Source: a virus (Duplodnaviria > Caudoviricetes). From it: 34,411 bases of DNA. Below are positions 1 to 17,913 of the stretch, piece by piece. The stretch covers positions 1-34,411 of IMG/VR virus record IMGVR_UViG_3300032227_000671. One strand, given 5' to 3'. Position 1 is the first letter of the stretch. Every line of letters starts with the position of its first letter. The notes below the pieces were generated by a model. It saw only the letters and a program-made list of their open reading frames with translations. It was not told where the DNA came from and ran no database searches. The position numbers and the translations under genes are program-made.

Positions 1-580
1 ACCATTAGAGCTAATATTATTGCCCTGTATATTACCAGATACGTTTAAATTTCCACCTACATTCGCTATATTACTAATGCTTAGATTATTACCAGTAACA
101 TTACCATTGGAACTAATATTGTTGCCCTGTATATTACCAGATACATTTAAATTTGCACCTACATTTGCCTGATTGTTAATGCTTAGATTATTGCCCTGTA
201 TATTACCAGATACGTTTAAATTTGCACCTACGTTCGCTATATTGCTAATGCTTAGATTGTTACCACTAACATTACCATTAGAACTAATATTATTGCCCTG
301 TATATTACCAGATACGTTTAAATTTCCACCTACATTCGCTATATTACTAATGCTTAGATTATTACCAGTAACATTACCATTGGAACTAATATTATTGCCC
401 TGTATATTACCAGATACGTTTAAATTTCCACCTACATTTGCCTGATTGCTAATGCTTAGATTATTACCACTAACATTACCATTAGAGCTAATATTATTGC
501 CCTGTATTATACCAAATACGTTTAAATTTGCACCTACGTTCGCTACATTACTAATGCTTAGATTATTACCACTAAGATTT
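1..580. repeat. Coding tandem repeat, ~102 bp (34 aa) units with one 69 bp short unit
   Basis: accatt(a/g)ga(g/a)ctaatatt(a/g)ttgccctg recurs at 1, 103, 274, 376 and 478; all spacings are multiples of 3. Confidence 0.9.
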
Positions 581-2529
581 CCAGTTACAATTAAAGAAGT
601 ACCTGTTGCAGCACCTATGTTCGGGGTGGTGAATTGTGCATTAGCTATTACTGCAATGTTCCCACCAACAATTCCTGTAGTAATTCCATCTGTATTTGCT
701 GAAAATTGTGTACCGGTTAACGCAATACCTGAACCAGCTGAATAAGTACCGGAGCCTGAAAATTGGGTGAATACGATCGGATCTGTACCAATTGTAGCTA
801 CGGTACTGACCTGCACCCAACCGGTACTTGCATAAGTATTTCCGGCTGATATAAATGTAAAGTCACCTGCTTCTACTTCAGGAATAGTGTTATAGTCACT
901 TGCTCTTGTTATGACAGTGCTGTTAGAATAAACATATATTCCATTCCAAGCCGGATCTGTTTCACTTTTAACAAGAATTCTAGTACCAACATTAGCAACA
1001 CTTACATTGTCAATTAACGTATATGCAGTAGTTGTTGTAAGGTTTGCACCTACTCCATTGGCGCCATTATTATATGTTACTATGCCACTGGTGATATTCG
1101 CTAGAGTATCAGGGGTTGCAACTAAACAAGCATCATGAATGTTTAACCCTTGAACAAAATCATCAACATATTGTTTATTAACCGCATCAGTTGCATTATT
1201 AGGTGTTCCAACTGAAGTAATTCTAGCATTATATGCATCTATAGTACCATTGCCGGTTGGTCGTAATAATATTGAGTAATTTCCTCCTGCAACGGTAGTA
1301 ATTGTAATATCGTTTAAGGGCGCTTTAATTATACTAGTAATTACAGAACCACTAGTTGTATCACCTAAAACATTAGCATTACCTACTGCGATTGCATTTG
1401 CTGAAATATTTCCATTGGCAGTAATATTACCTGAATTAATAGTAGAGTTAACATTAATTCCTGTGCCTGAAATTACAAGTACATTAGAGTTTCCTGCAAC
1501 ACTTATCGCTACATTGCTATTTTGTAATACTTGAATGTTAGAATTACCATTTGAAATTACAGAGGTGCTTATATTAGTTAGATAATATCCATTACCTAAA
1601 ATATAAGCACCTGAGACATTACCTGTAGCATTGACATTGTTGGCTGCATTTATATTATTTGCATTGACATTACCAGTGACATTGGCATTTCCTGTTACAT
1701 CTAACTGAGTTAATGTGCCTACACTGGTGATATTTGGTTGTGCTGCTGTTGTTACTGTTCCTGCTGTAGTTGCATTATCAGCCGAATTTGCGTGAGTTGC
1801 ATTTGCAACTGTACCTGTAACATTAGCTCCAGTAATATTTGCTAAATTGGCTCCACTACCAATGAAATAATTTGCTGTAACTGCATTACCTAAATTGGCA
1901 TTACCGACTACTGTAAGAAGATTGTTTGAACTATCAAATGTAAAGTTAGCACTAGCGTCAAAATCACCATTACTATTAAATTGTATATAAGTATTTGACC
2001 CTGCTGCTTGTTGAAAGTCAACTGGACTACCATTTGCATAGTAATAATTATCTGTTAAAATTCCGCCAACATTAGCATTCCCAATAATATTAGCAGCGCC
2101 ATTTGATATTAAATTACCACCAGTAATATTAGCAGATGCTTGCAATGTGTTAGCACCAATAATGCCTGAGTTAGCGTAAACATTGCCACTAGTAATATTA
2201 CCTGTTACATCTAACTGAGTTAATGTCCCTACACTAGTGATATTTGGTTGTGCATTTGTATAAACAGTACCTGCTACTAATGCGTTAGCAACTTGACCTG
2301 AAACATTAGCACCTTGAATACTAAACAGCGCATTAGCGTTTCCTGAGAAATAATTTGCTATAGCTAGATTACCTAAATCGGCATTACCAGTAGATAAATT
2401 TCCAACAACATTCCCATTGCCACTAAAATTAGCATTAGCGGCTGTGATGTCTCCATTACCTAAAACAATGTTTGTGGGTACGTTTCCTACAGAAAATCCA
2501 GCAACAGAGTTAAATGCCTTAATAGCCAT
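1..2529 (-). CDS. Tail fibre-like repeat protein (3' end runs off the window; absent from the ORF track)
   Basis: ATG at 2529 gives MAIKAFNSVAGFSVGNVPTNIVLGNGDI. The same frame at spot-checked positions gives DAVNKQYVDD, AQPNITSVGTL and VGGNLNVSGNIQGNNISSNG repeats. The N-terminus resembles that of the 558 aa neighbour. Confidence 0.8.
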   Translation of the reverse strand, partial: MAIKAFNSVAGFSVGNVPTNIVLGNGDITAANANFSGNGNVVGNLSTGNADLGNLAIANYFSGNANALFSIQGANVSGQVANALVAGTVYTNAQPNITSVGTLTQLDVTGNITSGNVYANSGIIGANTLQASANITGGNLISNGAANIIGNANVGGILTDNYYYANGSPVDFQQAAGSNTYIQFNSNGDFDASANFTFDSSNNLLTVVGNANLGNAVTANYFIGSGANLANITGANVTGTVANATHANSADNATTAGTVTTAAQPNITSVGTLTQLDVTGNANVTGNVNANNINAANNVNATGNVSGAYILGNGYYLTNISTSVISNGNSNIQVLQNSNVAISVAGNSNVLVISGTGINVNSTINSGNITANGNISANAIAVGNANVLGDTTSGSVITSIIKAPLNDITITTVAGGNYSILLRPTGNGTIDAYNARITSVGTPNNATDAVNKQYVDDFVQGLNIHDACLVATPDTLANITSGIVTYNNGANGVGANLTTTTAYTLIDNVSVANVGTRILVKSETDPAWNGIYVYSNSTVITRASDYNTIPEVEAGDFTFISAGNTYASTGWVQVSTVATIGTDPIVFTQFSGSGTYSAGSGIALTGTQFSANTDGITTGIVGGNIAVIANAQFTTPNIGAATGTSLIVTGNLSGNNLSISNVANVGANLNVFGIIQGNNISSNGNVSGNNLSISNQANVGGNLNVSGNIQGNNISSNGNVTGNNLSISNIANVGGNLNVSGNIQGNNISSNGNVSGNNLSISNIANVGANLNVSGNIQGNNLSINNQANVGANLNVSGNIQGNNISSNGNVTGNNLSISNIANVGGNLNVSGNIQGNNISSNG

Positions 2530-2553
2530 TGTTTATCCAATATAGTTGTTTAA

Positions 2554-5892: not shown

Positions 5893-5900
5893 TATTTATA
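5893..5900 (-). promoter_or_regulatory. T4 late promoter TATAAATA driving the HNH gene
   Basis: Perfect consensus 5 nt before the ATG. Confidence 0.7.
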
Positions 5901-14989: not shown

Positions 14990-15820
14990 ATGACTATAAA
15001 TAACAATCCACTTAGACAATATTTTCGTAGACCTTCAGTACACTTGAGATTACCCAGCAAAGGTAAATATTATGCTGACAATGTAATAGACATGCCTCCC
15101 ACAGGCGAGTTGCCAGTTTATCCTATGACTGCCATTGATGAAATAACAGTAAAAACTCCCGATGCACTGTTCAACGGATCAGCTATTCCGGAATTGATTA
15201 AAAGTTGCATACCTGATATCAAAGATCCATGGGCTATCAACAATGTTGACTTAGATGCAGTATTAATTTCTATTAAAGCAGCTACAGGTGATGGAGAAAT
15301 GGATTTAGACACCGTATGCCCCGCGTGTGAAGAAGAAACCAAATACGGACTAAGTTTAATTAGTATGTTAACACAATTAAAAGAAGGAGACTATGATTCT
15401 GAATTAATTATAAATGAGCTACATATTAAATTTAGACCAATCACATATAAAGAAATGAATTCAGCTAGTATGAAACAATTTGAAATTCAAAAGTTATTTA
15501 ATTCAATAGACCAACTCACCGACGAGCTTGAAAAAGCAGAAAGAGCTAAAACAGCAATTATTTCAATAACAGAGTTGACTATGAAGTTGTTAGCAAATGC
15601 TATTGAATATATCAGCACTCCTTCTGCTAGAGTAGAAGAAACCGAATATATTTTGGATTTTCTACAAAATTGTGATAAAGAATCTTATGATAAAATTAAA
15701 GATTATCACGCAAAACTTAAAGAAGATACTAGTATCAAGCCTTTAAAACTTAGTTGCACTAGTTGTAACCACAACTATGAACAATCCTTTACATTGAATA
15801 CAGCCGATTTTTTCGAGTGA
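14990..15820 (+). CDS. Baseplate hub assembly/tail chaperone (T4 gp26-like)
   Basis: LPSKG..Y, PMTAIDEI, DLDAVLISIK, CPAC and CTSC motifs; ends DFFE. Confidence 0.75.
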   Translation: MTINNNPLRQYFRRPSVHLRLPSKGKYYADNVIDMPPTGELPVYPMTAIDEITVKTPDALFNGSAIPELIKSCIPDIKDPWAINNVDLDAVLISIKAATGDGEMDLDTVCPACEEETKYGLSLISMLTQLKEGDYDSELIINELHIKFRPITYKEMNSASMKQFEIQKLFNSIDQLTDELEKAERAKTAIISITELTMKLLANAIEYISTPSARVEETEYILDFLQNCDKESYDKIKDYHAKLKEDTSIKPLKLSCTSCNHNYEQSFTLNTADFFE

Positions 15821-15856
15821 TGCTTCTTCGCCTTGACCATGAGGGCGTTAAGAAGC
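15808..15856 (+). other. Candidate programmed -1 ribosomal frameshift site
   Basis: In-frame T TTT TTC heptamer (15808-15814), 7 nt spacer, 13 bp stem-loop at 15822-15856; the next ORF is in the -1 frame. Confidence 0.7.
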
Positions 15857-16044
15857 TCATAGAAAACTATGACAAAGAGTGTAAGGGTATTAAGAAGATG
15901 GCTTTAAGCCTATCATGGTATATGAGGGGAGGGGTGTCATATGAGGATGTTCTCAATATGTCCCCTCAAGAACGAATAGAGATAAAAGAAATTATTGACA
16001 GCAATATGGAAATAACGAAAAAGAGTCAATTGCCCTTCTTCTGA
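15817..16044 (+). CDS. gp51-like small protein, or the frameshift extension of the upstream ORF
   Basis: LSWYMRGGVSYEDVLNMSPQER resembles the gp51-type aromatic/'xMxPxER' pattern; no clear RBS; overlaps the upstream stop. Confidence 0.65.
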   Translation: MMLLRLDHEGVKKLIENYDKECKGIKKMALSLSWYMRGGVSYEDVLNMSPQERIEIKEIIDSNMEITKKSQLPFF

Positions 16045-16084
16045 TTTTAACCATAATTATTCATTTATCCAAGTGCTGTTTCAT

Positions 16085-16580
16085 TAGAAGATGAGCTATC
16101 GCTCATCTAAGACCTCACTTCGTTCGGTCTTTATTTTTACAATTCAATACGGTTAAGAATTCTAATTTTATTTATTTTCTTAAGGGACTCATCTGCCGTC
16201 AGGAGACCATGGTAGTGCTGTTCAGCACTACCAATGATTAAGGGAACCTGCCATGCCCATCATCCATTGTTGTCTATTCCCCGTATAATCAGCTATTTGA
16301 GCTACTATACGCTACCGGTTGCTCTGTAAAGTTTGCTGGGACTGTAGTGAAGATTATCTCTTGCAAGAGGTCTTCCGCAACGCATGTTCTATAACCCAAA
16401 GACAAAGTAGGCTATAGACTCATTCAGGGTTCGCACACATAACGAGAGCCCTGTCGGTATTCCAAGACTAAAATACTAATCAATGATTAATATAATAATC
16501 CTGCATACTCCAGATCTGTCGGCCACGAGCCTTACCTCGGCTGACTCAAGGAGGATCGAGGTACCTCGATCAAACGAAAT
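16085..16580 (-). ncRNA. Candidate large structured non-coding RNA (alternatively an origin region); strand tentative
   Basis: ~0.5 kb with no ORF in the track, about 45% GC in its core by hand count, and about nine stem-loops with possible long-range pairings. Confidence 0.55.
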
Positions 16581-17150
16581 TTAGTGAATTTGTAATGTAA
16601 GTAAATTATTAGAAGATTTAATTTGATTTGACTTGGTGTCTATGGTGCTAGAATAAGTTTTAAGAAGGTCTTTGTTGTTTTTAAAAAAGTGATTGAATTC
16701 TATAAGAAGCCAATCACCATATTTGCCTGAAGAATAATATATAAAATTATCTGTAACCCAAGTAAGACCGCATTGCACGGCCACGTATCTTCCCTTTCGG
16801 TTGAACTTCATGAATAGGATATTTAAATCCCCGTCATCAGCTACCGACATGAGTTGATCTAGCCACGTATTTAGTTGCTTACTTTCACCTGAAAGTACTA
16901 AGTGAAAGGGAAAATCAGCATAGTTCTTTGCTTCAGCATTAAACTTACTCCAAGAATCAGGGGGAATAATATCTCCCTTAAACCCTTTGATTTGATTTTC
17001 ACTTAGATTTTGCTTTCTATGTGAATTTGAGCCACCAATAAAAGCACCTGAGTTAGGCACTCTTACAAAATGATCATCATATAGGTCACTGAGATATTTT
17101 GCAACATCTCTTTCCCATGATGAACCTTTTTGCTTCTGTGGACTAGACAT
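16581..17150 (-). CDS. Holliday junction resolvase-like PD-(D/E)XK nuclease (Hjc type)
   Basis: KQKGSSWERDVAKYL, RVPNSGA, GDII and EAK motifs. Confidence 0.8.
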   Translation of the reverse strand: MSSPQKQKGSSWERDVAKYLSDLYDDHFVRVPNSGAFIGGSNSHRKQNLSENQIKGFKGDIIPPDSWSKFNAEAKNYADFPFHLVLSGESKQLNTWLDQLMSVADDGDLNILFMKFNRKGRYVAVQCGLTWVTDNFIYYSSGKYGDWLLIEFNHFFKNNKDLLKTYSSTIDTKSNQIKSSNNLLTLQIH

Positions 17151-17154
17151 ACTA

Positions 17155-17913
17155 CTACTTAGCGTTTATTAGGGGTATGGAAAATTTACATTTATCACCA
17201 TGAAACATTGTATAATGATTTTTTGCCACTGTCTTACTACAATGTTCACACGTTCGTTGATGTTCGGGTTTCTTCATTGGATTATTATCGCCCGAGTTTT
17301 TTAATTTGGTCATTTCTTTATTGTAATCTGATGCAGGAACTCCGTACATTGGATTATTCGCACCTCGTAATCTCTCAGACAATTTCGGGTTTCCCTTAAG
17401 AGACTTACTTATGTTTTTGTTATGAGAGGTAGGTCTATTTTTTGCGTATTCCTTCAAACTAGAACTTTGTTTCTGCTTTCTACTATCATCATATTTTTTC
17501 CCGTAATGAGGTGATTTTTCGCCAGTTTTACCGTACATAGGATTTTTATTACCTATCCTAGCTTCACTCTTTTTTCGCCTAGTAGTTGCATTTTCCTTTA
17601 CCCCGTATCTATTGTATAATCCATCTCCGTTATGTTGATTGAAACTCAATGGATCATCTTTGGCATTAAGAGAGGTAAGAATTGAGTTTTCTAAATCAGC
17701 AATATAATTAGCTTCTCCAATGTATAGTATTTCATATACCCATTCATTGCGATTTTCTAAAACCAATGGCTTTACTTCTTTGCTTGAACAAATGTATTCT
17801 TCATGTCTTGTTGGGTTCCATCCCTTGCGAATCTTAGAACCTATATACCATTTGCCGGTTGGTATATGAGTCCATTTATAGATATAGGGTGTGGTTTCGT
17901 TATAAATAGTCAT
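17155..17913 (-). CDS. Free-standing GIY-YIG (Seg-like) homing endonuclease with NUMOD3-like repeats
   Basis: YIYKW...WYIGS, YICSS, then E and N residues; NPMYG repeats; C-terminal CEHC..H..C finger. Confidence 0.85.
   Translation of the reverse strand: MTIYNETTPYIYKWTHIPTGKWYIGSKIRKGWNPTRHEEYICSSKEVKPLVLENRNEWVYEILYIGEANYIADLENSILTSLNAKDDPLSFNQHNGDGLYNRYGVKENATTRRKKSEARIGNKNPMYGKTGEKSPHYGKKYDDSRKQKQSSSLKEYAKNRPTSHNKNISKSLKGNPKLSERLRGANNPMYGVPASDYNKEMTKLKNSGDNNPMKKPEHQRTCEHCSKTVAKNHYTMFHGDKCKFSIPLINAK

Follow-up and report, generated by a model that had tools for sequence, protein, structure and literature searches.

The window, by which we mean the whole stretch of 34,411 nt analyzed here, derives from a T4-related jumbo myovirus, with genes for the major head protein, protease, portal, baseplate, a gp46/47-like nuclease, and late sigma genes. 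Two of its genes converge on a non-coding gap of 536 nt (16045-16580), in which the element described here is located:

15817-16044, plus strand: small convergent ORF, which in the locus comparison is the fixed downstream neighbor of the element.
16193-16575, minus strand: structured RNA gene of ~385 nt, delimited by conservation and supported by covariation and mutual information (MI).
16581-17150, minus strand: gene for a RusA-like/PD-(D/E)XK Holliday junction resolvase of 189 aa (PHROG 244, E 3.6e-22; PF24608, E 9.6e-26).

The small ORF sits behind a baseplate-hub gene (14990-15820), and the closest cultured relatives of the resolvase are found in PA5oct/Paride (46%), SCTP-2, and Phosso. 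The initial annotation had described the region as the sole long non-coding gap of the window and as raised in GC, and both descriptions are correct. The runner-up among the gaps between main ORFs measures 154 nt (window positions 1-2530 are an open-ended ORF, not a gap), and positions 16201-16440 have a GC content of 0.45 versus 0.37 for the whole window, other spacers lying mostly at 0.23-0.32 and one at 0.43. No hidden ORF was found in the gap, where the longest stop-to-stop frame has 50 aa. At the end of the hub gene (~15805-15820, plus strand), a TTTTTTC run overlaps the small ORF, likewise in the Paride and Atu_ph07 sequences. Two homing-endonuclease genes have T4-type late promoter words (TATAAATA) where they start, at 17901-17908 (plus) and 5893-5900 (minus); one of these words lies antisense within the first codons, and the four matches in the window are at chance level.

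The element is conserved and real, belongs to giant lake phages, and is not catalogued in Rfam 15. It was present in all 73 IMG/VR resolvase loci having both flanks (out of 80 loci), with a resolvase-adjacent gap of 407-668 nt in 71 of them and of more than 1 kb in 2. In the latter two (L023, 1050 nt; L063, 1229 nt), the element tail is separated from the small ORF by an insertion. A search with the core pattern yielded at least 120 viral and at least 120 metagenome stretches (estimated totals of 330 and 220), and none in GTDB genomes. Among the matches listed, the resolvase was upstream and the small ORF downstream in 69/69 long-flanked viral loci; among the metagenome matches listed, the corresponding counts were 61/63 and 73/74, one miss being a chance match. 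In the other upstream miss (L352), a GIY-YIG-like gene stands where the resolvase would be. Three genomes (G001, G003, and G004) each contain a single copy of the element, as judged by both blastn and CM searches.

No match to Rfam 15 was obtained with the window, the best local E value being 2.8, and none of 15 related loci scored above gathering. A match to OTKONC (E 3.2) was taken as due to chance. The element is therefore uncatalogued, also with respect to group II introns, GOLLD, ROOL, ARRPOF, and Polynucleobacter-1, the last being a motif covered in the accessible part of PMC2864571. The initial annotation had not recognized it as a tRNA, tmRNA, RNase P, or group I intron, and it matches none of these, since no Rfam family reached its gathering score and ARAGORN reported nothing, including no tRNA anywhere in the window. 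Blastn against GenBank phages and plasmids gave no real match to the lake-phage element, and no published description of it was found in the full-text literature outside subscription papers. Short RNA candidates close to resolvase genes are reported in the available part of Fremin et al.; six contig ids of element-bearing loci were absent from six of the supplement files of that study, and fragments of the element RNA may be among its candidates of 29-151 nt.

The claim of a folded RNA on the resolvase strand is supported by conservation and covariation in related loci. Folding z-scores were -3.78 for the minus and -2.65 for the plus strand, and across 59 distinct sequences with a mean identity of 70%, the highest-ranking MI pairs are Watson-Crick or G-U pairs on the minus strand. 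This is the folded strand, since G-U pairs are tolerated there that would be A-C on the plus strand. An 83-pair structure was scored on a 43-row alignment, in which one row is short at the 3' end. Paired cells accounted for 94.2% of the total versus 80.5% in shuffled and 31-43% in slid alignments, the slide control favoring the window's own row, on which the structure was drawn. Two-sided (compensatory) changes were found in 57 of the 83 pairs, both pseudoknots included. The RNA is laid out as a 5' domain (P1-P3), a multi-junction closed by P4 and containing P5-P8, then P9, the two pseudoknots, and a 3' domain:

16554-16571, minus strand: P1 hairpin, with 7/7 pairs covarying and a variable loop.
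16508-16553, minus strand: P2, a CUCC/GGAG stem with an inner hairpin; P2a is 100% paired with one two-sided change.
16313-16459, minus strand: multi-junction core closed by P4 (P4, P5, P6, P7, P8), from the covariation alignment.
16270-16405, minus strand: pseudoknot PK1, in which the P6 loop (16405-16400) pairs with 16275-16270; 6 pairs, 100% paired, 5 of them with two-sided changes.
16278-16341, minus strand: pseudoknot PK2 (16341-16338 with 16281-16278), 88% paired, with register slips.
16210-16233, minus strand: P11, the last hairpin, between the twin words described below; 98% paired, conserved in sequence with little variation.

Within the core, pairing reaches 97% for P4 (16459-16455/16317-16313), 100% for P5a and P6, and 96% for P7 (16381-16376/16323-16318). 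The PK2 variants are TCC/GGA, GCC/GGC, and ACC/GGT, with 16340:16279 as its MI pair. All seven stems listed in the initial annotation are present where it had placed them. What it had called a perfect palindrome is P1, which is indeed perfect over 18 bp and takes the form of a hairpin whose loop varies among relatives. The multi-stem junction with a pseudoknot that it had proposed is supported by covariation for GTTGC/GCAAC (P7) and TTGTCT/AGACAA (PK1). The proposed CATGC/GCATG pairing was not confirmed: the local partner of CAU is AUG, within P6a, where relatives have ACA/UGU, while GCATG is part of twin word A, around which no consensus helix was found. PK2, the twin words, and a box upstream of the RNA are additions to that list. 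An invariant, self-complementary CCAUGG (16207-16212, minus strand) overlaps the base of P11. An extension of P11 by CCAU/AUGG was discarded because its 5' side is not conserved.

A ribozyme, which the initial annotation had also considered, or a structure that functions solely in single-stranded DNA, would explain the many invariant unpaired bases (ACUACA, UUA, AUGG), and covariation alone cannot separate RNA from single-stranded DNA, a point made in the accessible portion of PMC5737381. We nevertheless consider both extremely unlikely, given that there is no Rfam match to a ribozyme or intron, no interrupted gene, and that G-U pairs are frequent and the knots span a range of 130 nt.

The most unusual property of the element is a pair of short words near the 3' end of the RNA, which covary by identity:

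16248-16256, minus strand: twin word A, N-C-[1-2 nt bulge]-R-G-C-A, identified by MI and identity covariation and predicted to pair with the template at B.
16193-16199, minus strand: twin word B, N-C-R-G-C-A, 11-12 nt behind P11, identified by identity covariation.

The pair 16256:16199 is among the top MI pairs, and what it records is identity, not complementarity. Both words were parsed in 108 of 126 distinct elements. Position 1 was the same in A and B in 103/108, the 5 exceptions being G/A, from one clade that includes the window, and compatible with an rG-dT wobble. Position 3 was the same in 108/108, a count that includes a CGtGCA class in which this position had been fixed by the pattern. 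Counted on a tree of the element's 5' part, position 1 changed 15 times in A, 16 times in B, and 16 times jointly, while position 3 changed 4 times by each count. The independent G/T contrasts at position 1 all went in the same direction (8/8, p 0.008). All four letters co-switch identically, even where the resolvases are 93% identical, as between the window and L004. Allowing for the gap, the A/B match over 110 distinct pairs was 7.35 for own partners versus 6.16 +/- 0.10 for permuted ones (maximum 6.52 in 5000), and 4.04 for the reverse-complement control. In a held-out metagenome set, 45 of 53 new pairs could be parsed, and 45/45 were identical at both positions. The 8 unparsed pairs include wholly different twins (GTTGAA, TTGCATGAT), and further twins (GGTAAT, AGTAAT, GATAAT, GCAAGTA) are found among the 18 unparsed rows of the 126.

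A search for a shared complementary RNA partner within -900/+500 nt gave 36/87 in its best bin and nothing for the C- and A-types. A third RNA partner for word B, P7 and P2b included, was rejected on the basis of MI and this partner search, and a target-site duplication as the origin of the twins is ruled out by the ~16 joint changes. The simplest reading of the identity is that the third strand linking A and B would be the template DNA, since the template changes automatically with word B. Three observations count against such a template clamp: positions 7-8 of the words show no covariation and their identity decays there; a C(A)/T(B) mismatch, incompatible with RNA A on template B, occurs in five of the unparsed rows (L148, L160, L181, L005, and L087); and in 9/22 cultured copies (see below) the base after the bulge mispairs. 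Alternatively, A and B could have as their common partner an antisense RNA made in cis by the convergent strand, rather than the template DNA. This would account for the identity covariation equally well, convergent late transcription could read through to supply it, and the C/T mismatches suit a mixed RNA-RNA wobble geometry. It is made highly improbable by the search for a conserved antisense promoter or structure, which found none; a weak plus-strand consensus at 16030-16057 was at chance level. Taken together, it is quite likely that the RNA clamps its own template through word A, whatever the role of this contact.

The twin words are followed by an A+T-rich tract and two hairpins, and a dyad lies 5' of the RNA:

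16125-16185, strand not assigned: A+T-rich tract of 23% GC, by composition a candidate unwinding element.
16109-16131, minus strand: tail hairpin h1, a stem with tandem G-A pairs and a GAA triloop, from the tail comparison and DNA folding.
16089-16108, minus strand: tail hairpin h2 with a GATA loop; relatives have a GNA/GNNA loop, mostly closed by C-G.
16630-16640, minus strand: GAC-N5-GTC dyad box (GACACCAAGTC), a candidate protein-binding site inside the C-terminal tail of the resolvase.

In 105 relatives, the tract after word B is 55-93% AT. The h1 pattern has exactly one match in each of the three genomes with a single element copy, and a strict h2 hairpin is present in 89/105 tails, mainly with GNA triloops. 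Loops of the GNA/GNNA type are stable in DNA, and h2 loops such as GATA and GTTA depart from the GNRA rule of RNA. The DNA fold of h1 and h2 together has a z-score of -4.6. The words GTT/GCT, which are those of the T4 primase, were considered in the tail and dismissed, as they are not invariant.

At least one GAC-N5-GTC box was found within 170 nt 5' of P2 in 135/146 distinct loci, versus 0/146 control windows. It overprints the resolvase tail D-T-K/T-S, in which GAC is never GAT and the third codon is NNG with its amino acid free, so that the DNA letters are kept while the residue changes; in L352, which lacks the resolvase, two boxes are located in non-coding DNA. A narrower motif is near-unique, with 1, 3, and 2 occurrences in G001, G003, and G004, respectively. 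Given the variable distance to P2 (39-94 nt) and the absence of a -10 after the box, it is probably a protein site rather than a promoter. The dyad was rejected as a -35 box for want of a -10 at a fixed distance, and its genome-wide avoidance does not stand out from that of other spacers.

The same slot is also non-coding in PA5oct, Phosso, 121Q, and GAP32. The element profile gave no match to the Paride, Phosso, SCTP-2, and Atu_ph07 loci, and no long gap adjoins the resolvase homologs of SCTP-2 and Atu_ph07. The element in the 121Q slot has look-alikes in 73 GenBank phage records, of which 72 are Enterobacterales or Xanthomonas phages and one is a short match in a Bacillus phage. Six phages were searched for further copies (121Q, GAP32, BF, Munch, XaC1, and RaK2), each of which carries 3-5 on the same strand; in 121Q, GAP32, and Munch, one of the copies is in this same slot. 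No published description of this multi-copy RNA was found. Its 3' order (PK1-P7-PK2-P9-word A-hairpin-word B-AT-GNA) is that of the lake element in the 22 copies parsed of 27. PK1 scored 7.45 versus 5.81 when permuted, PK2 weakly (5.18 versus 4.72, permutation maximum 5.32), and the twin words 8.55/9 versus 7.03 (maximum 7.91), the copies not being independent samples. Within a single genome the copies vary, but their twins match in cis.

The CM of the P7-to-B region and an nhmmer profile gave no significant match to the cultured copies, and a first descriptor missed 27/27 because its P7 span was too long. A descriptor retuned post hoc, some of whose matches use words other than the true twins, recovered 26/27 cultured copies and 53/126 lake elements with 0 on the reverse strands; across 2.27 Mb it matched nothing but the 3 true sites, and it gave 3 matches in 1740 block shuffles. 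The two RNAs resemble each other in slot and direction, in the bulged word A, in AA followed by word B and, for the 121Q copy, in the P7 word ACAGAGCAACC. They differ in copy number (3-5 per genome versus one), in the 5' half, and in the GAC-N5-GTC box, found in 0/27 cultured copies. They thus appear to share a skeleton, which falls short of family membership and of proof of common descent. In RaK2, two copies 280 kb and 191 kb along (L273 and L275) have an identical 3' tail and PK1 region but not the same P9, a pattern suggestive of conversion or recombination among copies.

Other cultured phages present further types. PA5oct (MK797984, W01) contains a structured element in three copies, at 75.9-77.0 kb (the slot), 12.9 kb, and 246.1 kb. 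Clear promoters of the sigma-70 type precede two of the copies, and in the annotation the slot copy appears as tiny hypothetical ORFs. The 246.1-kb paralog overlaps the published ncRNA004, an early, low-abundance transcript that accounts for 0.08/0.03/0.02% of phage reads in Table 1 of PMC7318152, the part consulted. Since the PA5oct RNA fails the retuned descriptor, we consider it a different type with a shared slot and tail design. In Phosso, an unannotated structured gap of 1 kb (L083, 1486-2500) lies between an annotated RNase HI gene, which stands beside the slot, and the resolvase; it has no homolog in GenBank phages, and its GAA-loop hairpins are on the strand opposite to the lake layout. 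In 121Q, RaK2, and GAP32 (L271, L270, and L281), an inverted Endo VII gene occupies the resolvase position between the gp46 and hub genes.

These comparisons bear on the idea, raised in the initial annotation, that the RNA is a nuclease partner. In a specific form of it, word A would guide the resolvase (or GIY-YIG protein) in cis to cleave or resolve DNA at B. A nuclease gene is indeed directly upstream in nearly all metagenome loci listed, L352 with its GIY-YIG gene included, and the identity of guide and target resembles the donor loops of bridge RNAs. Nevertheless, the neighbor varies between resolvase, GIY-YIG, and Endo VII, most cultured copies are outside that slot (in 121Q and GAP32, look-alikes are found beside Endo VII and at 3-4 other sites), some resolvase homologs have no gap, and neither a variable guide nor mobile-element ends were found. 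The resolvase is the usual upstream neighbor of the RNA element, swappable and not an obligate partner, and RNA-guided cutting or recombination is very unlikely.

Expression was examined in public RNA libraries. Of 16 runs listed as holding the element, 11 are on record as RNA, and 6 RNA runs were examined, chosen for holding the element; their contigs cover parts of it and carry no information on strand, ends, or level (X2 contigs were seen through loose ends only). The contigs have a depth of ~4-6 and 0-4 differences where listed, and neighboring genes are covered too, no lower. The contig ends at 16198 (X3) and 16222 (X1) are not usable as transcript ends, and stretches lacking coverage carry no information. 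The proposed co-transcription with the resolvase received weak support from one RNA-library contig that bridges both (X3, 16494-17131), and no separate sigma-70 promoter was found. Sigma-70 promoters are not enriched 5' of the RNA (11.3 versus 11.5 in controls), no T4 middle-mode promoter, that is, an activator box at -30 with a sigma-70 -10, was detected there, and there is no MotA box or U-tract terminator in the gap.

These data also speak to an ornate RNA like GOLLD or ROOL, free and abundant, an oligomeric scaffold or protein sponge in which the twins would bind one protein or make symmetric contacts. Its size, phage setting, several knots, and invariant self-complementary CCAUGG would fit. 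We consider it quite improbable, because identical co-switching of four letters is unexpected for a protein site or kissing loop, the window has no tRNA and, as weaker evidence, RNA contig depth is not above that of the neighbors.

Skew, which the initial annotation had proposed to examine, does not place an origin here. In G001, G003, and G004, gene orientation switches at a distance of ~5-7 kb from the element, and the minimum of the raw cumulative skew is within ~6 kb of it in G001 and, locally, G004, and ~35 kb away in G003. The switch and the raw skew are one inherited arrangement, and skew tracks gene direction. A fourfold-site model placed the best origin elsewhere in 3/3 genomes, with inconsistent outcomes (rank fractions 0.21, 0.81, and 1.0); in phages that replicate by recombination and from several origins, skew is a poor test of origin position. 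In G004 the skew is W-shaped over 525 kb, and the record may be composite. The lack of an origin signal from skew and of a sigma-70 promoter 5' of the RNA both count against an origin, as do the weak signs of expression, and the nearby switch in gene orientation would fit one.

A real template clamp might also serve transcription: its R-loop would pause, terminate, or block transcription between the resolvase operon and the convergent hub operon, with the tail hairpins as a boundary. In favor of this, the element lies between convergent units in every long-flanked pattern locus among the matches listed, and skew gives no origin signal. P11 precedes word B by 11-12 nt, a spacing similar to that of pause hairpins. 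Still, a 385-nt double pseudoknot far exceeds what a terminator needs, several cultured copies lie between same-direction genes (L283 and L284), and the gap has no U-tract, so this explanation is unlikely.

Of the three functions suggested initially, a replication primer at an R-loop origin fits best, a nuclease partner is weakened, and nothing speaks in favor of a ribozyme. On balance, we regard it as probable that the element would be a ColE1-like pre-primer RNA at a phage R-loop replication origin, because a word matching the template, an AT tract, and hairpins of the displaced strand come together in the module. According to this model, RNA polymerase would come from the resolvase side to transcribe the element, whose two pseudoknots would fold during transcription and expose word A. 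Once the polymerase has passed B, word A would pair with the template strand there over 6-8 bp with a bulge; as such a hybrid is too short alone, the RNA fold would have to hold it. The hybrid would persist into the AT tract, and its 3' end, either as such or after a cut by host RNase H or a phage nuclease, would prime leading-strand synthesis. A host RNase H would be needed since RNase H (PF00075) was found in 0/5 phage records. The displaced strand would fold into DNA-type hairpins that load helicase or primase, with the GAC-N5-GTC box as the putative site of a regulator.

A wider proposal, which we put forward tentatively, is that a superfamily of double-pseudoknot self-clamping RNAs might constitute the replication origins of many T4-related jumbo phages, from uncultured lake phages to the E. 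coli phages 121Q and Sharanji. Their fold would present a freely variable word that invades the template behind the polymerase, a natural reprogrammable R-loop machine with its own regulator box in the lake clade. The hundreds of natural variants with their two-position code (A must equal B) amount to ready-made mutant/suppressor pairs, and the look-alike in cultured E. coli phages makes a laboratory test feasible. If the proposal is true, these RNAs would form a large class that has its own DNA as partner, and they might provide a compact origin or R-loop tool with little need for host factors.

By the tests made, the element is not a member of the ColE1, T4-origin, GOLLD/ROOL, or OMEGA families. 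GOLLD and ROOL are larger than the ~385-nt element. They are described as large ornate non-coding RNAs, often phage-borne, in the sections available of PMC12286853 and PMC5737381; the element differs from them by the lack of an Rfam match and of a tRNA context, by its tail of twin words, AT tract, and hairpins, and in showing no sign of very high abundance. OMEGA and bridge RNAs come with an obligate cognate protein and a reprogrammable guide, and here the neighbor is swapped in L352. The plasmid motifs ARRPOF, GEBRO, and PAGEV, structured and 223-349 nt long, lie in replication-linked regions according to the accessible part of PMC5737381; the element has no Rfam match to them and no plasmid match.

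A published account of replication initiation in these jumbo phages was not found, and what triggers an RNA-DNA hybrid that persists is described as an open question even in ColE1 and T4 in the portions available of PMC5043065 and PMC3016281. T4 oriF and oriG consist of a promoter and an A+T-rich element of ~100 bp, and their R-loops are described in the accessible part of PMC3016281 as requiring no specific sequence or fold. The likeness lies in a T4-related phage, a transcript that would run into an A+T-rich element, as the composition indicates, and several origins per genome, which the copies in cultured relatives recall; the upstream GAC-N5-GTC box might stand in for the MotA box. Unlike these origins, the element keeps a conserved 385-nt fold and twin words and has no MotA box or fixed -10. 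For ColE1, pairing between an rG run in the primer RNA and a dC run in the template is required for a persistent hybrid (PMC4412123, with Masukata and Tomizawa 1990 cited there), which displaces the other strand for helicase and primase (PMC5043065, PMC4412123), as far as the sections available describe it. There is no similarity to ColE1 in sequence, in Rfam, or among plasmids, no RNA I equivalent was found, and the element differs by its two pseudoknots and phage setting, by priming that is here a model, and by a clamp word that is a mixed, bulged 6-8-mer varying between phages instead of an rG/dC tract. With ColE1 RNA II, it would share a long folded non-coding RNA with a stretch that matches the template, where pairing is predicted here, and, in the proposed model, a displaced non-template strand that would load helicase and primase. 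If the replication inference holds, the element would be a variant on RNA-primed origins.
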